Virus record (IMG/VR): IMGVR_UViG_3300009034_001352
Location: 45,213-65,212 of that record
DNA length: 20,000 bases
Strand: one strand, 5' to 3'
DNA from: an uncultured virus (IMG/VR IMGVR_UViG_3300009034_001352)
Taxonomy: Duplodnaviria > Heunggongvirae > Uroviricota > Caudoviricetes
The position numbers and the translations under genes were made by a program. Under the pieces are notes generated by a model that was given only the letters and a program-made list of their open reading frames with translations, searched no databases and was not told the origin of the DNA. Position 1 is the stretch's first letter, and every line of letters starts with the position of its first letter. This document shows positions 1 to 15,577 of the stretch, in pieces.

Positions 1-462
1 CATGTTATGGAAGTTGAGAGAATATTTTGGGAAGATAAATTTCCTGTATATGCTGAATGGAAAAAGAAAACTATAAAAGAATATGAAAAAAAAGAATATG
101 TGGAATTATTTACAGGTTTTCGATGTAAAGGGCCTATGAAAAGAAATGAAATTATAAATTATAGAATTCAGGGATCTGCTTTTCATATCCTTTTATGGAC
201 ATTTAATCAAGTAATGAAAGAAAGTAGAAAATTTAATAAAAGTTTTTTGATTGGACAAATACACGATTCCATGTTAGCTGATATTTATCCAGATGATGAA
301 GAAGAGTTTGATTATTTAGTTTGGTATTATGGAACACAAAAAATACCAGAATGTTGGGATTGGATTATTGTTCCATTAAAAATAGAAAAAGAAAGATCAG
401 CTATAAATGGAAATTGGGCTGAAATGGAAGATCAAGGATATTTAAAAGGAGAAAAAGAATGA
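1..462 (+). CDS. polA: DNA polymerase family A, C-terminal part (5'-truncated by window)
   Basis: Frame is open from base 1. Contains NYRIQGSA (PolA N.PIQG.A) and motif C GQIHDS, then VPLKIE...G.NWAE, typical of the PolA C-terminus. Confidence 0.9.
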   Translation, partial: HVMEVERIFWEDKFPVYAEWKKKTIKEYEKKEYVELFTGFRCKGPMKRNEIINYRIQGSAFHILLWTFNQVMKESRKFNKSFLIGQIHDSMLADIYPDDEEEFDYLVWYYGTQKIPECWDWIIVPLKIEKERSAINGNWAEMEDQGYLKGEKE

Positions 463-1199
463 AAGCAAGTAAATTGTATATTAATGATTTTGGTAAAGAA
501 AAGTGCGTATTCTGTAATTCTGATTGTTCTAAAAAGATTTTGGTTTCTTCTTTTATTAAAAAAACATTTACTAATTATGATTTATTACAAAATCCAGATG
601 GGTTATATATGTGTAAAGGATGTTATTTTAGTATGACAGATAAAAGTATAGAGGAATTGATAATGCCTGATGGAGAAATTAAAACTAATCAATCAGCTCG
701 TACCTATTCTTGGGTTCTTACTAAGAAGAAAAAAAGAGCTTTTTCAAAAAGACATATTAAAGAGATAAAAGAAATAGTTTTAAATCCTCCTAAACCTCCT
801 TTTGCTATTGTTATTTCTGATAAAGGAAAAAAACATTTAATATTCAGGTCATTAGTATCTTATTCAAGAGATGATTATGTATTACAATTTGAAGAAGAAT
901 CAGTATTTGTTAATGTAAAAAAATTAAAAGATAGAATAGAATTATGTGAGAGAATAATAGCTTTTTGTGGAAAAATTAACATTTTGAAATATTCAAAATT
1001 CAAAATTTCTAAACATAGTTTACCAAATGTTTCGGAATCTTTATTAAATCAATTTTTTTCTATTAAAGAAGAAAAGCTAATGGAGTTAGCTATATTTTTA
1101 TCAAAAAATAAAAAGGAGTGTTATAATGAGTATTATTTTATTGAAAAGTCAAAAAGAATTCAGACAGAAAATAGCGGGTTTATTTTGTTTGATGAATGA
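459..1199 (+). CDS. csf1: Type IV CRISPR-associated large subunit Csf1 (Cas8-like)
   Basis: N-terminal CxxC...CxxC (CVFC, CKGC), 'FTNYDLL', 'PPKPPF' and 'KKHLIFR' match the Csf1 pattern. ATGA overlap with the polA stop. First gene of the csf cluster. Confidence 0.85.
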   Translation: MKASKLYINDFGKEKCVFCNSDCSKKILVSSFIKKTFTNYDLLQNPDGLYMCKGCYFSMTDKSIEELIMPDGEIKTNQSARTYSWVLTKKKKRAFSKRHIKEIKEIVLNPPKPPFAIVISDKGKKHLIFRSLVSYSRDDYVLQFEEESVFVNVKKLKDRIELCERIIAFCGKINILKYSKFKISKHSLPNVSESLLNQFFSIKEEKLMELAIFLSKNKKECYNEYYFIEKSKRIQTENSGFILFDE

Positions 1200-1581
1200 A
1201 GAAAATGAAGAAGTAGAGGAAAAAATTAAAAATGAATGTATTAAATTTATTTCATTATTACCTGTTTTTTTCTCCGATTCCTTAGATAGGAAAACATTAT
1301 GGGATCGTATATCCCATGGAATTTATTCTGCTTCCACAAAGTGTGATAATGATTTTGAATCTTTTCTTAATTTTGTATTAGAGTATATTAAAGCAGAAGG
1401 AAATAAAGTCGCTAGTAATTCTGAATTTAGTTCTTTTTTATCTTTTGTAATTGAAAAATCAGATGGGTGGAAAATAAAATTTATTACTTTATGTCAAAAT
1501 AAATATTATATTTTAGTTGCATATGCTAGACAAAAATGGGAGGAGAGAAAAAAAGAAAAAAAGAAAGGAGAATTAAAATGA
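1126..1581 (+). CDS. csf4: Type IV-B small subunit Cas11/Csf4-like helical protein
   Basis: 151 aa, helical-looking ('LWDRISHGIYSAS', C-terminal 'YARQKWEERK'). Lies between csf1 and csf2 as in type IV-B loci. AAGGAG at 1113-1118. Alternative start at 1192. Confidence 0.7.
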   Translation: MSIILLKSQKEFRQKIAGLFCLMNEENEEVEEKIKNECIKFISLLPVFFSDSLDRKTLWDRISHGIYSASTKCDNDFESFLNFVLEYIKAEGNKVASNSEFSSFLSFVIEKSDGWKIKFITLCQNKYYILVAYARQKWEERKKEKKKGELK

Positions 1582-2507
1582 TAAAAACATATAAAATATA
1601 CTGTTTAATGGAATTGTTAAGTCCTCTTACTCATATGATGGAAACATCAGGTAATGAGTCTTTAATTAATAGAGAACCTATTTTTTATGATAAAAGAATT
1701 ATTCATATCCCTGTTATATCTGGTAATAGTATTAGGCACAGAATTTTAAGACATCCCGGATCTTTATATTTAATTGAACAGATGGAAATAGAAGGAAAAA
1801 TGGGATTTGATCAATTGAATTTTATGATGTATGGTGGAACTCTTTGTGAAACGAAAACAACTACTAATTTGAAGAAAATTGCACTTATGGAAGAGTTGTT
1901 TCCATTATATAGATTATTAGGAGGTTGTCTTAAAAATCAGATAATTTCTGGTAGTTTAGATGTATGGAGAGGTTTACTTATATGTGAAGAAAATAGGGAA
2001 ACAATTAATAAGTATTTACCGGAAGAATATTATATTAATAAAAAATTATTTCCTGCTGATATGTTTGTTGGTAAATATCAATATACTCGTGGTGATATGA
2101 AAAATATAAAAAGTGTTGGTAAATTGATTAAAAATTTTAATGTAATAGAAAATAGAGAAAAATCTAATCTTATGATATATAATGGACAACAAGTTAATCG
2201 TAATAGTTTCTTTTTTCATGGTTTTGCTACAAAATATGTATCTGAAATTGAAATAGGATGTATTTTTCATTGTTTACAATTATGGTCTGAAAATTACAGT
2301 ACATTGGGGGGTATGATTGCTAAAGGACATGGAAAAGTAAATTTATCCTGTTTTTTAGAAAATAAGGAAATTGATATATCTAATTGTGTTCAAATGTATA
2401 TTGATCATGTTCAAAAATATAAAAATGAAATGATAAATTGGTTGGATGAAATATTTCCAAAAAAAGAAAATAAAAATAATATGACAGGAAGTTTATTTAG
2501 TGAGTGA
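1578..2507 (+). CDS. csf2: Type IV Cas7-family backbone protein Csf2
   Basis: RAMP motifs 'LLSPLTH', 'IPVISGNSIRHRILR', 'MYGGTL', 'FPLYRLLGG' and Gly-rich loop 'LGGMIAKGHGKV'. ATG 1578 follows an AAGGAG site and overlaps the upstream stop (ATGA). Confidence 0.92.
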   Translation: MIKTYKIYCLMELLSPLTHMMETSGNESLINREPIFYDKRIIHIPVISGNSIRHRILRHPGSLYLIEQMEIEGKMGFDQLNFMMYGGTLCETKTTTNLKKIALMEELFPLYRLLGGCLKNQIISGSLDVWRGLLICEENRETINKYLPEEYYINKKLFPADMFVGKYQYTRGDMKNIKSVGKLIKNFNVIENREKSNLMIYNGQQVNRNSFFFHGFATKYVSEIEIGCIFHCLQLWSENYSTLGGMIAKGHGKVNLSCFLENKEIDISNCVQMYIDHVQKYKNEMINWLDEIFPKKENKNNMTGSLFSE

Positions 2508-3177
2508 TAATTTTAAAGTAATATGTGAATTATGTTCTCCTTTATGTGAGGATGCTCCTCAATTAGATGCTTTACTTTGCAATGAACTTATATTTAAACA
2601 AAGATTATGTATATTTGGTAAGAAATTGAGTAGAGGAGATCCAATAAGTGAATTCAAAGAACCTAGAATACCATTGCGAAGTATTAGATATAATAATATG
2701 CCCATTTATTTTTCATCAAATCCTATTTATATATGTAATTATGAATTTAGGGAAGATTTTTGTTATCATTTTGAATCAGAATTATTTTTTTTATTATTAA
2801 ATATGGAAAGAAAATCTATTTCAGCAACATCTGGAATATATAAAGATAGACGTATTCCAATTAGATTAAAGTTAGTAAAAAAGATTGTATGGTTTTGTTG
2901 TGGAACAAAAAATAGTGTATTAGAAATATTACAAAATATATCATCAATAGGGACAAAGCGAAAACAGGGATTTGGAATTGTGTTAAAATGGGAAGTGGAA
3001 GATGTAGAAAAGGATTATTCTTTTTTTATTAAAAAAGATAATAAACGGATATTGATGAGAAATATGCCAAAAGATTTAATTGAAGACGATGTTATAGGTT
3101 ATACAATTAAATATGGAGCGGTATCTCCTCCTTATTGGCATCCAGGACGTTTTATGAATATAGCTTTTCCATTATAA
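2500..3177 (+). CDS. csf3: Type IV Cas5-family protein Csf3
   Basis: N-terminal 'LCSPL...LDALL', 'GIYK..R.P', 'WFCCG', G-loop 'IGTKRKQGFGIV..WEV', 'LMRNMP', C-terminal 'PPYWHP'. GTG start overlaps the csf2 end. Confidence 0.88.
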   Translation: MSDNFKVICELCSPLCEDAPQLDALLCNELIFKQRLCIFGKKLSRGDPISEFKEPRIPLRSIRYNNMPIYFSSNPIYICNYEFREDFCYHFESELFFLLLNMERKSISATSGIYKDRRIPIRLKLVKKIVWFCCGTKNSVLEILQNISSIGTKRKQGFGIVLKWEVEDVEKDYSFFIKKDNKRILMRNMPKDLIEDDVIGYTIKYGAVSPPYWHPGRFMNIAFPL

Positions 3178-3179
3178 TT

Positions 3180-3557
3180 ATGTTGATTTATTTATATCGA
3201 GTAAATAGAGGATTGAACAGATGCATACGTACTGCCTATAGTTTTGGATTTGAAAATATTTTTTTAGTTGATTGTGGTAAATATGATAATAGATTATTTT
3301 CTGCAAAAAGAATAAGAATTAATCGTACTTTAAATTTTTCATTTGGAAAAGGTTTATTATTAGAGAAAAATAAAGGTAAGGAAATTAGATCAGTTAATCT
3401 AAAAGAATATGATTTTATTATATTAGGAGGAGAATCAATAATTCTTACAAAAAAAATATATGATGGTAATTTTTGTTATATACAAACAAAAAATGATTTT
3501 TGTTTGACATCTCCTGTAGCTTTATCTATTTTTTGTTGGGAATATCAAAAATGTTAA
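3180..3557 (+). CDS. Minimal SPOUT (SpoU/TrmH/TrmL-like) RNA methyltransferase-like protein
   Basis: 125 aa. 'LNRCIRTAYSFGFENIFLV' resembles motif 1 (N.G...R...FG), 'IILGGES' motif 2 (G.E), and 'IQTKNDFCLTSPVALSIFCWE' motif 3 (IP.....SLN...A..I..YE). ATG is 2 nt after the csf3 stop. Confidence 0.65.
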   Translation: MLIYLYRVNRGLNRCIRTAYSFGFENIFLVDCGKYDNRLFSAKRIRINRTLNFSFGKGLLLEKNKGKEIRSVNLKEYDFIILGGESIILTKKIYDGNFCYIQTKNDFCLTSPVALSIFCWEYQKC

Positions 3558-4276
3558 TAGAATGTGATAGACATACAGAAAAAGATTTGAAATTATATGA
3601 TGAATTAAATGGAATGGATTTATGTAATTTTAATTTAAGAAAGATAGATAAAAAAGAAAAAAAAGCTATTGATACAATTAAAAATTTTGTTGTTAGAAAT
3701 AAATATTATTGTGCTGTATCTTGGGGAAAAGATAGTGTTGTAGTTATTAATTTATGTTTAAAATTATGTTTAAATATTCCGATTGTGTGGATTAAAGTAC
3801 ATCCTATTTATAATCCTTATTGTGAAAAAGTACGGGATATTTTTTTAAAAAAATACCCAGAAATTAATTATCATGAATATTATATTAATTGTAAAGTTGA
3901 TGACAATGGAATAATACATGCTAAAGGAACTTTAGAAAAGGGATTTGAATACGCTGTTCGGGATTTTGGTGAAAATTATATTACAGGGATTAGATCTGAA
4001 GAATCTGCTATTAGAACATTAAGAAGTAAAATGTACGGTGTGATGTCTAAAAAAACATGTGCCCCAATAAATTATTGGAAATATGAAGACGTATTTGCTT
4101 ATCTTGCTTATTATGATTTACCAATTCATCCAAATTATGCCATGTTAGGGGGAGGTAGATATAAAAGAAAATATTTACGAGTGGCTTCATTAGGAGGAAA
4201 AAGAGGAAGGGAAAGAGGTCGTTATGCATGGGAACAAGAATATTATTCGGATTATATAAGAAAATTTGAAAAATAA
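3551..4276 (+). CDS. cysH: CysH/PAPS-reductase-like PP-loop protein (type IV-B associated)
   Basis: PP-loop 'AVSWGKDS', 'ITGIRSEES..R', 'CAPINYWKYEDVFAYL...LPIHPNY'. Overlaps the upstream stop. cysH-like genes are the known companions of type IV-B loci. Confidence 0.88.
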   Translation: MLIECDRHTEKDLKLYDELNGMDLCNFNLRKIDKKEKKAIDTIKNFVVRNKYYCAVSWGKDSVVVINLCLKLCLNIPIVWIKVHPIYNPYCEKVRDIFLKKYPEINYHEYYINCKVDDNGIIHAKGTLEKGFEYAVRDFGENYITGIRSEESAIRTLRSKMYGVMSKKTCAPINYWKYEDVFAYLAYYDLPIHPNYAMLGGGRYKRKYLRVASLGGKRGRERGRYAWEQEYYSDYIRKFEK

Positions 4277-4289
4277 TAGGAGAAGTAGA

Positions 4290-5207
4290 ATGAATTTATA
4301 TTTGAAACATCGCCCTAAATCATTTCAAGAAATGATAGGAAATAAAGAAATTATTGAGAGTTTAGAAAAAATGATTAATAAGAAAGACAAACCGCATAGT
4401 TATCTTTTTACTGGCCCAAGTGGATGTGGAAAGACCACAGCTGCAAGAATTTGTTCTGATTTAATAGGAGCTAAAGATTTATCTGTTATGGAAATAAATT
4501 CTTCTAATAATCGAGGGATAGATACAGCAAGAAATATTATAGAACAAATGAGAATGAATCCTATTGATGGGAATATTTGGTCTTTTATTATGGATGAAGT
4601 TCATCTTATGACAACAGTTGCTCAAAATGCTATGTTGAAACCATTAGAAGATTATTCTGATATTGCTTATTTCTTTTTATGTACTACAGATCCACAGAAA
4701 TTAATAAAACCACTAAAAAATAGATGCACTGAATTTAATTTTTCTTCTTTATCCTATAAATATATTTGTAAATTATTAAGAATAATGAATAGAAAAGAAA
4801 AGATAGAAATAGATAAAGAAATTATTGAAGAGATAGCAGAATATTCGGGAGGAAGTCCAAGAAGGGCTTTAGTATTATTTGAAAAAATAATAGGAATGGA
4901 AAAAAAGAAAGCAATTAAATTAATTTCTCAAGGAATAGATGAAAATGAAAGTCAAGTGATAGATTTATGTAGAGCCTTATTAAAAGATAGTTGGGGGGAT
5001 ATTTCAGATATATTAAAAAATATGGAGATAACTGATCCTGAAAAAATAAGAAGAGTTGTTTTAGGGTATATGAATTCAGTGCTTTTAAATGGATTGAATT
5101 ATAAAGCTGGATTAGCTTTGGAATATTTTTCGGAACCGTTTTATAATTCTGGAATGCCTGGAATTACTTTGGCATGTTATCAAGTTATATCTTCAGGAGG
5201 AGAATAA
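4290..5207 (+). CDS. dnaX: DnaX (DNA Pol III gamma/tau)-like AAA+ clamp loader subunit
   Basis: 'LYLKHRPKSFQEMIGN', Walker A GPSGCGKT, 'EINSSNNRGID', Walker B 'IMDEVH', 'AQNAMLKPLED', NRC (SRC-like), 'GSPRRAL'. AGGAG upstream. Confidence 0.92.
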   Translation: MNLYLKHRPKSFQEMIGNKEIIESLEKMINKKDKPHSYLFTGPSGCGKTTAARICSDLIGAKDLSVMEINSSNNRGIDTARNIIEQMRMNPIDGNIWSFIMDEVHLMTTVAQNAMLKPLEDYSDIAYFFLCTTDPQKLIKPLKNRCTEFNFSSLSYKYICKLLRIMNRKEKIEIDKEIIEEIAEYSGGSPRRALVLFEKIIGMEKKKAIKLISQGIDENESQVIDLCRALLKDSWGDISDILKNMEITDPEKIRRVVLGYMNSVLLNGLNYKAGLALEYFSEPFYNSGMPGITLACYQVISSGGE

Positions 5208-5365
5208 TGAAAAAAGGTTTTCTTTTGATAATTATTTTTATTTTTTTAATTTTAAATATAATAGTTACTATTTTAGATAGACAAATATATAGAGGTATAA
5301 TGGATTTTATATTATTAAATATTTCATTTACTTGTTTATTACGTATTGAAAGAAAGGAGAAATAA
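5207..5365 (+). CDS. Small membrane protein
   Basis: TAATG overlap with dnaX, GGAGG upstream, two hydrophobic segments. Confidence 0.6.
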   Translation: MKKGFLLIIIFIFLILNIIVTILDRQIYRGIMDFILLNISFTCLLRIERKEK

Positions 5366-5366
5366 T

Positions 5367-5546
5367 ATGTGTAATGATTGCGAATGGCTTGATTATATTG
5401 ATTTGGCAGATGATATGTTACTTGATGAAGAATATGATTTTGCTTCTGATACGATTGAAGGAATAAAAGATTGGATTAAGGAAAATGAACATGTTACAGA
5501 CAATCAAAAAAATGCTCTACAAAATATTTATAAAAGTGCAGAATAA
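5367..5546 (+). CDS. Hypothetical acidic phage protein
   Basis: AAGGAG then ATG 5367. N-terminal CxxC, 'VTDNQKNALQNI'. Confidence 0.7.
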   Translation: MCNDCEWLDYIDLADDMLLDEEYDFASDTIEGIKDWIKENEHVTDNQKNALQNIYKSAE

Positions 5547-7489: not shown

Positions 7490-8666
7490 AAAAAGATTTT
7501 TAACTGGAAGTGATCTTCTTGATATTGTTATTGGAGGAGGAATTGGAAAAGGATATCCTGCTGGACGCATAATTAATATTGTAGGGGATAAGTCAAGTGG
7601 CAAAACATTTCTTGCATGTGAATTGATAGCTAATGCATATTATAAATATGGAAAAAAGTTTAAATGGATTTACGATGATTGTGAAAGTGGTTTTACTTTT
7701 GATACATTAAAATTATATGGAATAGAGATTATACCAAAATCTGATGATAAAAAAATAAAAAGTAACACGGTTGAAGAATTGTATTGTAATTATAGAAGGT
7801 TTTTGGAAAGTATTAAAAAAGATGAAGTAGGTATTTATGTGATTGATTCTCTTGATGGATTGAGTAGTAATGAAATATTAAATAGAAGTAATGAAAGATA
7901 TAAAAAATGGGAGGATGATAAAGAATTTAAGAAAGGATCTTATCAGATGGGAGCAGCTAAATTTTTTAGTCAAGAATTTTTTAGAGGTTTAGCTGGAAGT
8001 TCACATGACAAGAATGTTTTGCTTTGTATTATAAGTCAGGTTAGATGTAATATTGATCCTATGAATTTTAAAAAGTTCACAAGATCAGGTGGAAAAGCAT
8101 TAGATCATTATTGTAATACTGTTTTGTGGTTAGCTAATATGAAAAAAATAAAAAGAAGAGATAGAATAATTGGTATAATAATAAAAGCAAAATTAGATAA
8201 AAGTAAAACACCAAGACCATATAGAGAATGTGTTTTTCCTGTTTTGTTTGATTATGGAATAGATAATATAGGAGCAAATATTGATTATCTTTTTGATTTG
8301 AGAACTAAAACAGGAGAACTGTCAACTGATGCAAATAAGATAGTTTGGAAAGGTGAAAAAATAACAGCTTCAATTTTAAAAGATTTTATTAAAGAAAAAA
8401 ATATTGGGGAAGAATGGAAAGAATATAAAAAAGAAAATGGAACTGGGAAAAAAGAGGATATGATTAATTTTTTGAAAACACATAAAAAATGTAATAAAGA
8501 CTTTGTGAAAAGATTTGGTGAATCTAAAACAAAAGAAGAACTTATAAATTGGATTGAATCAGAGAAAATGGAAAATGAACTTAAAAAAAGAGTGAGGATA
8601 AAATGGGAAGCAATAGAAGAAGATATAAAAATAAAAAGATTAAGAAAGTACAACAAAGTCTATTGA
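7413..8666 (+). CDS. recA: RecA/UvsX-like recombinase
   Basis: 'TGSDLLDIVIGGG...GYPAGRIINIVGDKSSGKT' (Walker A), 'VIDSLD' (Walker B), 'ISQVR', 'SGGKALDHY', 'YGID'. GAGGAGG at 7397-7403. Confidence 0.93.
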   Translation: MPTMKTKNKEIKNVIMKRNQKSEKIEKRFLTGSDLLDIVIGGGIGKGYPAGRIINIVGDKSSGKTFLACELIANAYYKYGKKFKWIYDDCESGFTFDTLKLYGIEIIPKSDDKKIKSNTVEELYCNYRRFLESIKKDEVGIYVIDSLDGLSSNEILNRSNERYKKWEDDKEFKKGSYQMGAAKFFSQEFFRGLAGSSHDKNVLLCIISQVRCNIDPMNFKKFTRSGGKALDHYCNTVLWLANMKKIKRRDRIIGIIIKAKLDKSKTPRPYRECVFPVLFDYGIDNIGANIDYLFDLRTKTGELSTDANKIVWKGEKITASILKDFIKEKNIGEEWKEYKKENGTGKKEDMINFLKTHKKCNKDFVKRFGESKTKEELINWIESEKMENELKKRVRIKWEAIEEDIKIKRLRKYNKVY

Positions 8667-8860
8667 AAGATTTTGATTTAACCAAAAAAGATTTATTCAG
8701 TGTTTGGTTGGCTTATATTCATAATATAGCAAAAGGAAAAAGTCAAAAAGAAACATTACAAAAGTTAAAAGTTTGTGAAGATATAATAGAAAATGAATTG
8801 GATTATTTTACAGCTTTTGGTTTAACTATGATTACACAAATATTAAGTGAGGAAATATAA
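8663..8860 (+). CDS. Hypothetical protein
   Basis: Fills the gap after recA. Probable TTG start overlapping the recA stop; start is uncertain. Confidence 0.5.
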   Translation: MKDFDLTKKDLFSVWLAYIHNIAKGKSQKETLQKLKVCEDIIENELDYFTAFGLTMITQILSEEI

Positions 8861-9036
8861 TGAAAAAAGTTAAAATATTTGAAAGTTATAATAAACATGA
8901 ATTAGAAATAGAAATGAATAATTGGATGAAAAAGAATGAATGTGAAATAGATATATTTTTTGTGAGACAATCAGTAAGTTCGGATTCTAAAGATTCTACA
9001 TATTTGATCATTTCTATTTGGTATGAGGAAATATAA
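8860..9036 (+). CDS. Small protein resembling the Cse60/DUF2758 family
   Basis: Not in the ORF track. MKKVKIFESYNKHELEIEMNNWMKK...YLIISIWYEEI (58 aa). GAGG site, TAATG overlaps at both ends. Confidence 0.65.
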   Translation: MKKVKIFESYNKHELEIEMNNWMKKNECEIDIFFVRQSVSSDSKDSTYLIISIWYEEI

Positions 9037-9245
9037 TGGAATATATTGAAATAGCTGCTAAAATGTTAGATTGTAAAGTTGAAGATATGGAAAAAGATTG
9101 TATAGGTTTAGTTAGATTATTAAATGATATGAATAAATTTTGTGAAAGTGTGGAAGGAAAATTAAAATCAAGACAAGAGATTGCTTTAATTATTTATTCT
9201 TATTATCAAGATGATAAAATATTAAAAGCATCTTTTGGATTTTAG
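9036..9245 (+). CDS. Hypothetical protein
   Basis: 69 aa ORF with GAGG site and TAATG coupling. Confidence 0.65.
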   Translation: MEYIEIAAKMLDCKVEDMEKDCIGLVRLLNDMNKFCESVEGKLKSRQEIALIIYSYYQDDKILKASFGF

Positions 9246-13455: not shown

Positions 13456-13779
13456 ATGAAAATATACATATCAGGACAAATAACAGGAGATCCAAATTAT
13501 AAAGAAAAATTTCTTTTTTATAATGAAATATTGAGAAAAAAATTTCCATCTGTTGAAATATTTAATCCTGCTATTGAAATTGAAAAAGAAAAATATTGGA
13601 ATCAATGGATTTGGGAAACATATATTGTATGGGGAATTTTTATGTTAGATGGCTGTGATATGATATATATGATTCCAGATTGGAACCAATCACAAGGGGC
13701 TATCATAGAAAGAGAATATGCAAAAATAAAAGGAATAGCAATCGAGTATTTTAAAACTTTATATAGAAAGGAGAAGTAG
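13456..13779 (+). CDS. DUF4406 / nucleoside deoxyribosyltransferase-like protein
   Basis: 'KIYISGQITG', 'FNPA', 'CDMIYMIPDWNQSQGAIIEREYA'. Confidence 0.8.
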   Translation: MKIYISGQITGDPNYKEKFLFYNEILRKKFPSVEIFNPAIEIEKEKYWNQWIWETYIVWGIFMLDGCDMIYMIPDWNQSQGAIIEREYAKIKGIAIEYFKTLYRKEK

Positions 13780-13879: not shown

Positions 13880-15577
13880 ATGATAACAAAATTAACAAAT
13901 GAACAAAAGTTAAAATTAAAAGAATATAAAGATAGATACATTAAAATTGGATTAAATACAGATCGAATTAATAAAAAAGAATGTAGAAAAGATGTAAATA
14001 ATTTATATAAACATATTTTAAAAAAGAAAATACCTAAAAAAATTATTATTTGCGACAGTCCATATCAATTATGGCATAATCTTTGTTTTTATATAATTAT
14101 TACGAAATCAATAAATAATAATGTAGTTTGGAATGAAGTTAGGAAGGAAGTTTGGAATGTAGTTAATGATAAAATTAGTGATAAAGTTTGGAATGAAGTT
14201 AGTGATAAAGTTAGGAATGAAGTTAGTAATGAAGTTTGGAATGAAGTTTGGAATGAAGTTAATGATAAAGTTTGGAATGAAGTTAGTGATAAAGTTTGGA
14301 ATGAAGTTAGGAAGGAAGTTTGGAATGTAGTTAATGATAAAATTAGTGATAAAGTTAGGAAGGCAGTTAATGATAAAATTAGTGATAAAGTTTGGAATGA
14401 AGTTAGGAATGAAGTTAGTAATGTAGTTAGTAATGTAGTTAGGAATGTAGTTTGGAATGAAGTTAGGAATGAAGTTAGTGATAAAGTTTGGAATGTAGTT
14501 TGGAATGTAGTTAGTAATGTAGTTAGTAATGAAGTTAGTAATGAAGTTAGTAATGAAGTTAGTAATGAAGTTAGTGATAAAGTTAGTAATGAAGTTAGTA
14601 ATGAAGTTAGTGATAAAGTTAGGAATGTAGTTTGGAATGAAGTTAGTGATAAAGTTAGTAATGAAGTTAGTAATGAAGTTAGGAATAAAGTTAGTGATAA
14701 AGTTAGTAATGAAGTTTGGAATGCAGTTAGGAATGAAGTTAGTGATAAAGTTTGGAATGAAGTTAGTAATGAAGTTAGTAATGAAGTTAGTAATGAAGTT
14801 AGTAATGAAGTTAGGAATGAAGTTTGGAATGTAGTTAGTGATAAAGTTTGGAATGTAGTTAGTGATAAAGTTTGGAATGTAGTTAGTAATGAGAAAAAAT
14901 ATTTAATTAATTTTATATATCCTTTTTTAGATGGCAATTTCAATTCATATTATTTTAGTTTTTATTCATTTTTTATTAATGAATGCAAAATTCAGATAAC
15001 AAATAAATATTTTATATATGAAAAATTGTGTGATTATAGTCTTATCTATCCATTTAATAAAATTTGTTTTATTTCTGAAAAACCAAATGAAATAAATTTA
15101 ATCAATAATAAATTACATGCTGATTTAAAGCCAGCATTAAAATATTCTGATGGTTTTAGTATATATTCTTTAAACGGCACAATTATGCCCAAATGGATTG
15201 TTATGACAAAAAAAGAAGATATGAAAATAGAAGATATATTTAAATTAAAAAATATAGAACAGAGATTGGAAGCAATAAAAAAAATGGGCGATTTATTTTT
15301 TGAGAAAATGAAATCTATGATTTATGATAAAAAAGAAATATATTTAGATGGCAATCAAAAAGTATATTTAAAAAATATAGGAAATTTAAAAAAAGTAAAT
15401 TATGAATTGTTAGGAATTAATATAAAAGATGTTGATAAAGAAATGAAAGTATTAAAAATGGAAAATCCATCAACAAATGAAATTCATTATGAAATGGTAA
15501 ATCCAGAATGTAAACAGATTTTAGATGCTTTTGAATTTAGAACAGGAATACGTAGTTTTCCTGCATATTTAAGTTAA
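13880..15577 (+). CDS. Tetrapeptide-repeat protein with DUF6745-like C-terminal domain
   Basis: N-terminal 'ITKLTNEQ...IGLNT', 'CDSP'; central V-[SWRN]-[NDK]-[EKVA] repeats; C-terminal 'ISEKP...LHADLKPALKYSDGFSIYSLNG', 'NIEQR', 'NPST'. Confidence 0.75.
   Translation: MITKLTNEQKLKLKEYKDRYIKIGLNTDRINKKECRKDVNNLYKHILKKKIPKKIIICDSPYQLWHNLCFYIIITKSINNNVVWNEVRKEVWNVVNDKISDKVWNEVSDKVRNEVSNEVWNEVWNEVNDKVWNEVSDKVWNEVRKEVWNVVNDKISDKVRKAVNDKISDKVWNEVRNEVSNVVSNVVRNVVWNEVRNEVSDKVWNVVWNVVSNVVSNEVSNEVSNEVSNEVSDKVSNEVSNEVSDKVRNVVWNEVSDKVSNEVSNEVRNKVSDKVSNEVWNAVRNEVSDKVWNEVSNEVSNEVSNEVSNEVRNEVWNVVSDKVWNVVSDKVWNVVSNEKKYLINFIYPFLDGNFNSYYFSFYSFFINECKIQITNKYFIYEKLCDYSLIYPFNKICFISEKPNEINLINNKLHADLKPALKYSDGFSIYSLNGTIMPKWIVMTKKEDMKIEDIFKLKNIEQRLEAIKKMGDLFFEKMKSMIYDKKEIYLDGNQKVYLKNIGNLKKVNYELLGINIKDVDKEMKVLKMENPSTNEIHYEMVNPECKQILDAFEFRTGIRSFPAYLS
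14126..14893 (+). repeat. Coding tandem repeat, 64 x 12 bp
   Basis: Unit GTT-(AGT/TGG/AGG/AAT)-(AAT/GAT/AAG)-(GAA/AAA/GTA/GCA), occasionally ATT in the first codon; 768 bp in unbroken register. Confidence 0.95.

Follow-up and report, generated by a model that had tools for sequence, protein, structure and literature searches.

An array-less type IV-B CRISPR-Cas operon between polA and dnaX of a tailed phage: a possible RNA-bound platform for two modifying enzymes

The DNA analysed here (the window, 20,000 nt) represents the final 20 kb of a record of 65,213 bp from an uncultured tailed phage (IMG/VR IMGVR_UViG_3300009034_001352, labelled G000). At positions 459-4276, between polA and a dnaX-like gene, it carries six intact genes, all on the + strand, which form a complete, intact, array-less effector operon of CRISPR-Cas subtype IV-B together with two enzyme genes. 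Coordinates refer to the window unless they are marked G000, G001 or with an L-number, which are record or locus labels. Every long open reading frame (ORF) of the window lies on the + strand, and the guanine-cytosine (GC) content is approximately 25%. The features of the locus, with lengths in amino acids (aa), are the following:

1-462, + strand: 3' end of polA, the phage family A DNA polymerase (Pfam DNA_pol_A, E = 1.2e-6 on the fragment)
G000 43071-45674: full polA, 867 aa (DNA_pol_A 6.7e-46, uracil-DNA glycosylase (UDG) 3.9e-21, 3'-5' exonuclease 1.8e-10)
459-1199, + strand: csf1, type IV large subunit, 246 aa
1134-1199, + strand: flexible C-terminal tail of Csf1, residues 226-246, ending GFILFDE
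1126-1581, + strand: cas11, type IV small subunit, 151 aa, start revised
1578-2507, + strand: csf2, Cas7 backbone subunit, 309 aa
2500-3177, + strand: csf3, Cas5 subunit, 225 aa, GTG start
3180-3557, + strand: ORF5, minimal SpoU/TrmH-type SPOUT methyltransferase (predicted), 125 aa
3551-4276, + strand: cysH-like gene of the CasCysH type, 241 aa
4290-5207, + strand: dnaX-like clamp-loader ATPase, first gene past the module (NCBIfam dnaX_nterm 2.2e-54; PHROG clamp loader 1.5e-60)

All junctions of the block are overlaps or gaps of 2-13 nt. The csf1 ATG overlaps the polA stop as ATGA, a second ATGA joins cas11 to csf2, csf2 and csf3 overlap by 8 nt, csf3 and ORF5 are separated by 2 nt, ORF5 and the cysH-like gene overlap by 7 nt, and the 13 nt that lead from the cysH-like gene to the dnaX-like ATG at 4290 contain an AGGAG. 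The six contiguous genes and tight junctions reported in a preliminary description of this DNA, made from the sequence alone, are therefore confirmed by the ORF coordinates, with all frames intact on the + strand. From such gapless packing, it can fairly be inferred that the module is co-expressed with the replisome. A consensus promoter scan was uninformative (47 sites versus 43.9 +/- 7.7 in shuffled sequences), so the statement that the module has no promoter of its own relies solely on gene packing. Three terminator-like hairpins were found where 0.8 +/- 1.0 were expected; two of them are the same palindrome inside cas11, and they were judged to be chance occurrences. A search for sequencing runs covering window 1-5300 listed none, RNA runs included.

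The identity of the Csf core is supported by several profile collections. Csf1 matches PADLOC typeIV_Cas8 (1.1e-57) and NCBIfam cas8u_csf1 (7.2e-17) and carries CxxC...CxxC cysteines close to its N-terminus. Its AlphaFold2 model has a predicted local distance difference test score (pLDDT) of 89, with residues 1-225 folded. In the PDB, the three top-ranking matches of this model all come from type IV-A Csf complexes (chains 7xg1_A, 8rc3_G and 8rc2_G; E 3e-5 to 2e-3). Cas11 (PADLOC typeIV_Cas11, 6e-36) belongs to a subunit class that is absent from IV-A. Csf2 is recognised by PADLOC typeIV_Cas7 (1e-84), NCBIfam csf2 (2e-6) and phrog_22746 (2.4e-67), and its sequence matches in the PDB are a type IV-C Cas7c (1.5e-7) and the Csf2 of 7JHY (1.6e-4). 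Csf3 matches PADLOC typeIV_Cas5 (1.4e-31), NCBIfam cas5_csf3 (4.8e-13) and phrog_34599 (6.7e-33). The PHROGs families matched by Csf2 and Csf3 carry the label 'unknown function'. All three NCBIfam equivalog matches (csf1, csf2 and csf3) fall under the NCBI curated cut-offs, which indicates a divergent branch. With regard to the subtype, csf1, csf2, csf3, cas11 and an adjoining cysH-like gene are all present, and an array, cas6/csf5, dinG/recD and cas1/cas2 are all absent. Thus, the earlier assignment of the block to a phage-borne, array-less type IV-B module holds on hidden Markov model (HMM) and fold matches alike, and the ORFs do not fail the comparison with Cas7, Cas5 and Csf1.

One gene start had to be revised. 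The preliminary description placed the start of cas11 at 1192; the correct start is the ATG at 1126, which has an AGGAG 7 nt upstream, and the N-terminal sequence EFRxK[IL]AGL stands behind a Shine-Dalgarno site in all 14 of the loci examined for it. The csf1/cas11 overlap thereby becomes 74 nt, and the last 24 codons of csf1 are overprinted on the 5' end of cas11 in a second frame. These codons include the Csf1 tail, the last ~20 residues of which are modelled as coil with a mean pLDDT of 52-55. Among 32 aligned Csf1 proteins, 16 end straight after a conserved LSRLAAWLA..KEE helix, and the other 16 have a tail that closes with a hydrophobic peptide, xLF(D). The overlap with cas11 measures 62-140 nt in tailed loci versus 4-29 nt in tailless ones. 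The beta-clamp-binding consensus is QL[SD]LF. The glutamine is present in half of the 16 tails (e.g., QVSLFE, QVLFDLG, QLLFDFA and QPLLFDLG), and the eight tails that lack it include those of the window Csf1 (KRIQTENSGFILFDE) and its closest relative (CLLF). In the 32-protein alignment, the window tail appears as a shortened form of the long tails, and GFILFDE aligns with QVSLFE, QVLFDLG, QLLFDFA and QPLLFDLG; its hydrophobic part fits the clamp consensus, and the glutamine is missing. As judged from these alignments, the Csf1 tail resembles a clamp-binding peptide that lacks the usual glutamine.

The fifth gene could not be classified by its own sequence, which reaches only E 0.048 against Pfam SpoU, and a near-length word search with ORF5 returned no homologue besides ORF5 itself. 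However, three related viral loci have a counterpart of ORF5 between csf3 and cysH; against SpoU_methylase these proteins score 1.4e-6, 3e-8 and 1.8e-7, and two of them, from L025 and L039, exceed the Pfam SpoU gathering score. A family profile built from four such proteins returned, out of 1.84 billion, 104 cluster representatives at E <= 0.001, 59 of which have E <= 1e-10; SpoU_methylase was matched by 31 of 60 aligned members. The AlphaFold2 model of ORF5, made with the family alignment, has a pLDDT of 97 and a predicted template-modelling score of 0.89. Its top Foldseek matches are the RNA 2'-O-methyltransferases RlmB, TrmH, TrmJ, TrmL and Nhr/Tsr (TMq 0.74-0.82, E from 7e-8). The model has 122 PDB matches at E <= 0.001; among those listed, every named function is that of a SpoU/TrmH-family RNA methyltransferase, and the remaining listed entries are knotted YibK/SPOUT-type proteins or putative methylases. 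The motifs NxxRxxRT, GGE and I-x-T...CLT align, and ORF5 retains all ten family positions conserved at >= 90%. It consists of the knot domain alone, without an RNA-binding extension. The 'SPOUT-like' label given in the preliminary description therefore survives, despite the Pfam E-value of 0.048, on the SpoU matches of the homologues and the knot fold; by homologues and fold, ORF5 is a SpoU/TrmH-type SPOUT protein, a predicted RNA 2'-O-methyltransferase. Nonetheless, several of its motif positions deviate from the consensus, which makes its methyltransferase activity uncertain.

Some members of this family are fused to other domains: among the 60 aligned proteins, a DSP/PTP-type phosphatase is found in at least six, a Cas6 in one and a HAD domain in one. 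The fusion members (the Cas6 one, Pfam 3.7e-12, and several with a DSP/PTP-type phosphatase) are P0175 (206 aa), P0144, P0151, P0152, P0156, P0164, P0167, P0171, P0173 and P0185. By family HMM, the SPOUT gene is found in 5 of 33 distinct viral loci, each time between csf3 and cysH. In two of the related loci (L025:11517-12062 and L039:10109-10651), a conserved ORF of ~181 aa lies between csf3 and the SPOUT gene; it has a zinc-ribbon-like CxxC pair at its C-terminus, no significant Pfam family and no counterpart in the window. Elsewhere in its genome, the phage has another SpoU methylase, of full length (G000 22887-23333, L003:7887-8330; 148 aa, Pfam 5e-18), which is only 19% identical to ORF5.

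The last gene of the module matches Pfam PAPS_reduct at 5e-9, above the cut-off, and phrog_2302 at 1.1e-21 (PAPS, 3'-phosphoadenosine-5'-phosphosulfate). It lies in the same operon, one gene past csf3, and the early recognition of a cysH-like gene in the module was correct. Two motifs are conserved in at least 85% of 32 homologues from viruses and metagenome-assembled genomes (MAGs), namely the PP-loop SWGKDS (S57-W58-G59-K60-D61-S62) and a C-terminal WExEYY. In the same set, there is no conserved cysteine past residue 170, and the last partly conserved one is C170 itself (81%). In the review of Taylor et al. (PMC8175902), CasCysH proteins carry a PP-motif of the SGGxDS kind in place of a reductase P-loop, have lost the catalytic cysteine at the C-terminus and are predicted to act as ATP alpha-hydrolases or AMPylating enzymes. 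Judged by its residues, the cysH-like product fits the CasCysH type that is the signature of IV-B, an ATP-pyrophosphatase-like protein with the PP-loop kept and the reductase cysteine missing.

The phage also encodes a set of sulfation and sugar genes far from the cysH-like gene: an adenosine-5'-phosphosulfate (APS) kinase (Pfam 1e-45) whose N-terminus is extended by 112 aa, a protein resembling the TauE/SafE sulfite exporter (3e-30), a sulfotransferase, NeuB (6.5e-49), a CMP-sugar cytidylyltransferase and a glycosyltransferase (G000 12177-13025 in L002; G001 20892-22235 and 16073-19641 in L012/L013). This set suggests a sulfated nonulosonic-acid glycan. A genuine PAPS reductase working with the APS kinase, the sulfotransferase and TauE was considered for the cysH-like product and rejected as the main explanation because the reductase cysteine is missing.

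The search for an array and for further cas genes could be extended beyond the window. A second record, G001 (83,839 bp), is a circularly permuted version of this phage genome: G000 1-59910 equals G001 23929-83838 at 99.997% identity, and G000 59792-65212 equals G001 1-5421. As the two records bridge each other's ends, the genome appears to close at ~83.7 kb; closure is put cautiously because both records break inside a 12-nt tandem repeat. This repeat belongs to a 565-aa ORF (window 13880-15577, G000 59092-60789) that contains ~60 copies of the 12-nt (4-residue) unit, has a GC skew of up to 0.82, matches phrog_31813 and shows a weak PADLOC match to a type I specificity subunit (7e-14). The genome is that of a tailed phage, with terminase, portal-region, capsid, tape-measure and Dit genes, and its replication and recombination arm encodes an SNF2 helicase, primase, DnaB, DUF4942, DnaN (G000 41872-42978), PolA, the module, DnaX, a UvsY-like protein, SSB, a UvsX-like protein and RusA. 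The SNF2 helicase gene lies 10 kb upstream of the module, among replication genes and outside the module itself. A tblastn search with Csf2 against 50,697 GenBank phage records gave no match, and PolA finds only relatives of <= 25% identity among GenBank phages; the phage thus has no cultured relative.

Exact 14-mer and 12-mer repeat scans of the closed ~83.7-kb genome revealed no CRISPR array, and a seed-and-extend scan of the whole of G001 returned only coding tandem repeats, two-copy chance families and one iteron-like set. Rfam gave 0 matches in 120 kb, no transfer RNA was found in the phage genome, and PADLOC applied to 80 + 23 further ORFs detected no Cas6, DinG, Cas1, Cas2 or Cas3. Hence, neither the window nor the closed genome contains an array, cas1/2, cas6, dinG or a nuclease gene of this kind, and the array with cas6 or dinG elsewhere in the genome, which the preliminary description had named as a possible objection, is not there in the ~83.7 kb scanned. 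The iteron-like set comprises four tandem units in an intergenic region (G000 38578-38830, L015:2506-2760) ahead of a small ORF and dnaB, which open the replication operon. The units have a period of 62-74 nt and two conserved boxes each, TTACTTTYYG and AAAGTTCCTAWAAAT. Their RNA fold z-score of -0.45 is not significant, the motif does not recur elsewhere in the genome, and it is absent from the flanks of other modules, save for single chance matches in L051 and L053. These two-box units, considered as a possible mini-array or RNA, look like origin iterons or repeated promoters and not like a CRISPR array.

Related modules are widespread. Csf2 has 223 homologues at E <= 1e-5, the closest of which are 68-74% identical, and an alignment of 26 Csf2 proteins contains 42 invariant columns. 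IMG/VR yielded 35 loci, one being this phage; phmmer with the window proteins detected Cas11 and Csf2 in all 35, Csf1 and Csf3 in 34 each and a CysH homologue in 26. The order csf1-cas11-csf2-csf3 is colinear in these viral loci, at GC contents of 25-65%, and 14 further loci lie on MAG contigs assigned to many phyla. No CRISPR-like array was found within ~10 kb of the module in 48 related loci. Where the CysH match is missing (nine viral loci), a radical SAM gene stands beside csf3 in five (L024, L036, L038, L046 and L047). In four others, an additional ParB-like gene and a PAPS_reduct-DUF3440 gene form a pair between csf3 and the CasCysH gene, and these modules thus hold two different PAPS-reductase-family genes. 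The four insertions are the following:

L019:2658-4535: ParB-like gene and PAPS_reduct-DUF3440 gene
L028:12491-14462: the same pair
L030:11764-14020: the same pair
L049:12490-14276: the same pair

The genomic neighbourhood was compared in 32 distinct viral loci plus the window (33 in total). Pfam annotation covered 131 of 340 neighbouring ORFs, taking on either side of the module the closest two that share its strand and reach 100 aa, along with those located within it. Four of the loci have replication genes directly beside the module:

the window: between polA and the dnaX-like gene
L021: after DnaB
L051: between DUF4942 and PolA
L037: before a helicase

In approximately 10 of the 33, the module adjoins terminase or portal genes, eight according to Pfam (L018, L019, L025, L027, L039, L044, L048 and L049) and two according to phmmer (L020 and L042). 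Since most relatives lie near packaging genes, the position in the replication operon is lineage specific. In L051, the replication proteins of which are 36-45% identical to those of this phage, PolA and DnaX are adjacent, and the module is located three genes upstream. Within one conserved replication arm, the slot of the module thus varies, and the one between polA and dnaX is particular to this phage. A 364-aa ORF before PolA in L051 was examined as a candidate clamp; it scored E 1.2 in BLASTP against the DnaN of the phage and matched nothing in Pfam. The earlier suggestion of a domesticated phage replication function is too general, given that replication genes adjoin the module in only 4 of 33 loci.

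Virus-borne IV-B modules are already in print, and the novelty of the present locus is confined to its variant features, i.e., the SPOUT accessory gene, the overprinted clamp-like tail of Csf1 and the position in a replisome operon. A 2022 Cell paper by Al-Shayeb et al. is said to describe type IV systems in lytic phages. According to Pinilla-Redondo et al., IV-B systems are array-less, linked to cysH, carried on plasmids and sometimes prophages, and negatively correlated with other CRISPR systems in their hosts; these authors raise both a CRISPR RNA (crRNA) sponge and an epigenetic role, and call the sponge unlikely for the complexity of the system. In Shmakov et al., the locations given for IV-B are plasmids or predicted prophages, and the paper on Bathyarchaeia viruses (PMC10848311) describes a viral IV-B system with a mini-array and mentions type IV in prophages and several lytic phages. 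The function of IV-B was still called unknown in reviews of December 2024 and in a paper of September 2026. In the open literature, leaving subscription journals and supplements aside, no paper was found that links IV-B to SPOUT, SpoU or TrmH, or Csf1 to the sliding clamp; type IV papers containing the word 'clamp' use it in other senses.

Among characterised systems, the closest counterpart is the IV-B system of Mycobacterium sp. JS623 (7JHY; PMC7937560, PMC8175902), which likewise has csf1, cas11, csf2, csf3 and a cysH-like gene, is described without array, cas6, helicase or adaptation genes, resides on a mobile element and encodes a CasCysH with a PP-loop and without the catalytic cysteine. 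Its complex is a Cas7/Cas11 filament that bound heterogeneous RNA without sequence preference and ignored co-expressed type I-E crRNAs. However, the sequences are very distant (Csf2 versus the 7JHY Csf2, E 1.6e-4), the JS623 system is found on a megaplasmid whereas the window module lies in a lytic-type tailed phage, inside an essential operon, and the window adds the SPOUT gene and the Csf1 tail overprinted on cas11. The archaeal 'Fuxiviridae' system (PMC10848311) is also virus-borne, with Csf1, Cas7, Cas5 and a CysH-like protein and no adaptation module in the published description; unlike the window phage, in whose whole genome no array was found, it has a mini-array of two repeats and one spacer, its host is an archaeon, and it is not known to carry a SPOUT gene. 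With the IV-A1 system of Pseudomonas oleovorans (PMC11551745; 8RC3, 7XG1) the module shares the Csf1 fold. In that system, interference is nuclease-free, crRNA-protein complexes are found near DnaX foci and the replication of targeted plasmids is disturbed. Unlike the window module, IV-A comes with an array, Cas6 and the DinG helicase; as described, it lacks Cas11, CysH and SPOUT, and its link to the fork is made through target binding and not through a clamp-binding-like tail of the kind proposed here. Finally, ORF5 resembles TrmL, the 'minimalist' SPOUT tRNA 2'-O-methyltransferase (PMC3763551; 7E3S, 4JAL), which is a knot domain without RNA-binding extension (TMq 0.73-0.76 against TrmL chains). 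ORF5 is shorter, at 125 aa versus 145-156 aa for the TrmL chains, and lies inside a cas operon.

What, then, could such a module do? It is about an even chance (probability roughly 0.5) that the Csf filament is an RNA-bound platform for two RNA-modifying enzymes and not a nuclease-type immune effector. On the model of the solved IV-B core, Csf2 and Cas11 would assemble along RNA into a filament that has Csf3 and Csf1 as caps, and the complex would hand bound or base-paired RNA to the SPOUT protein for ribose 2'-O-methylation and to CasCysH for ATP-dependent adenylation. The idea of a platform comes from the accessory genes: a SPOUT protein that has no binding domain, a CasCysH with predicted adenylating chemistry, the fusions to phosphatases and Cas6 in the SPOUT family, and the radical SAM genes of other loci. 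Indeed, because ORF5 has no RNA-binding extension of its own, it would need the Csf platform. Of the two roles offered in the preliminary description, i.e., a sponge for host crRNAs and a platform delivering modifying enzymes, the latter fits the accessory-gene pattern better. 2'-O-Methylation is RNA-guided in box C/D ribonucleoproteins (RNPs) and end-directed in the Hen1/Pnkp RNA repair pair. The module may be comparable with these systems, in which an RNA-protein scaffold places a 2'-O-methyltransferase together with adenylating or phosphatase partners, in terms of functional analogy only; fibrillarin and Hen1 are Rossmann-fold enzymes with no homology to a SPOUT-type system.

A possible, if doubtful, extension of this proposal is that the Csf1 tail GFILFDE docks on the beta sliding clamp, either the phage DnaN or that of the host. 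The considerations behind it are that the tail is disordered, that 16 of 32 Csf1 proteins are tailed, that the tail is overprinted on cas11, that the phage DnaN and clamp loader are encoded in the same operon, and that type IV-A1 complexes have been reported near replication forks (PMC11551745). A clamp-docked particle would act where DNA is being replicated, in keeping with a gene position inside the replisome operon, and the tether would let a complex that has no helicase reach single-stranded DNA or nascent RNA at forks. Combining both ideas, IV-B would be an array-independent, clamp-docked RNP that matures or marks the RNA it holds by SPOUT 2'-O-methylation, by CasCysH adenylation and, where a phosphatase is fused, by dephosphorylation; this full combination must be counted as unlikely. 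The payoff could be conflict with mobile elements, counter-defence or replication control.

Several observations weigh against an enzyme platform tethered to the clamp. The sole solved IV-B complex bound heterogeneous RNA, and its CysH is not reported to have been studied there (PMC7937560). The SPOUT gene occurs in only 5 of 33 distinct viral loci. ORF5 departs from the family consensus (GL to IL, IPT to IQT and TVEA to TSPV) and is 31% identical to the SPOUT protein of its closest relative, the other module proteins of which are 60-70% identical; thus, ORF5 may be drifting. As regards the tail, the glutamine of the clamp-binding consensus is missing from the window Csf1, half of the Csf1 relatives are tailless, and among the 120 + strand ORFs of the phage a GFILFDE-type ending is unique to Csf1, being present on no other protein. 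Most related modules lie beside terminase or portal genes and not beside replication genes. Furthermore, a SPOUT enzyme acts on RNA, which has no obvious fit with a tether to a DNA clamp.

A different explanation, and a somewhat unlikely one, is that the complex scavenges guides, i.e., that it loads host crRNAs or fragments of abundant transcripts and blocks the transcription or replication of rivals without cutting, the enzymes serving only to mature or protect the guides. Csf1, Cas5 and Cas7, the parts needed for a surveillance complex, are present; type IV-A represses its targets and stalls plasmid replication without a nuclease (PMC11551745), a viral IV-B with a mini-array is in print (PMC10848311), and the SPOUT-family Cas6 and phosphatase fusions hint at the processing of RNA ends. 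However, the genome contains no array, mini-array or repeat-like RNA, none was found within ~10 kb of the module at 48 related loci, type I-E crRNAs supplied by co-expression were ignored by the solved IV-B complex (PMC7937560), and the module encodes no helicase that could open duplex DNA. Alternatively, the filament might simply soak up host crRNAs or small guide RNAs and disarm RNA-guided defences during infection. Such a sponge would be in keeping with an array-less, nuclease-less, phage-borne module, with RNA binding without sequence preference in the one solved case (PMC7937560) and with the negative correlation between IV-B and other CRISPR systems, but it leaves the near-universal CasCysH, the SPOUT protein, the radical SAM alternatives and the clamp-like tail unexplained, and its own proposers considered it too complex to be likely; it is distinctly improbable.

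The same replisome context that suggests a clamp tether would also suit a DNA-modifying machine at the fork, in which CasCysH, a relative of DndC, or its radical SAM substitute marks new phage DNA against restriction and is delivered by the Csf RNP and its tail. The module stands in the replisome operon beside the phage clamp and clamp loader, Csf1 has a clamp-like tail, the PAPS-reductase family includes DndC (PMC8175902), and the phage encodes a UDG-like PolA domain, a nucleoside 2-deoxyribosyltransferase and several methyltransferases. Still, this explanation is very improbable: CasCysH lacks the cysteine required by DndC-type chemistry, the structural relatives listed for the partner SPOUT are all RNA methyltransferases, and most related modules are found outside replication operons. 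An inert passenger, i.e., a block in decay that travels with the replication genes and no longer has a function, is largely excluded. The deviation of ORF5 from its family consensus and its faster evolution compared with its neighbours would agree with decay, but the six frames are open and tightly coupled for translation, Csf2 and CasCysH keep invariant residues across many distant viruses, and gene order is kept across 25-65% GC.

If the RNA-modifying platform on the clamp were real, prokaryotes would have in it an equivalent of Hen1/piRNA-type guide protection or of guided methylation of the box C/D type; in this phage, the particle would be produced along with the replisome of the phage itself and travel on it. 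IV-B is the sole CRISPR-Cas subtype with a solved core structure and yet no known function. Within 3.8 kb, the present locus brings together three clues, namely a predicted 2'-O-methylase too small to find its own substrate, a CasCysH and a clamp-binding-like Csf1 tail near clamp and clamp-loader genes, and it is thus a compact candidate for learning what IV-B does.

Some other genes of this phage deserve mention. PolA carries an N-terminal uracil-DNA-glycosylase-like domain (3.9e-21), which is also present in the PolA of the L051 relative, and a nucleoside 2-deoxyribosyltransferase-like protein is encoded at window 13456-13779; both may point to non-canonical bases in the DNA of the phage. 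Pentapeptide-repeat proteins can mimic DNA, and one such protein (4e-36; G000 14093-14947) is encoded together with a Lar-like restriction-alleviation protein (G000 29383-29739). The phage also carries GIY-YIG and HNH homing endonuclease genes, at G000 8378-9091 and 28399-28923, respectively.

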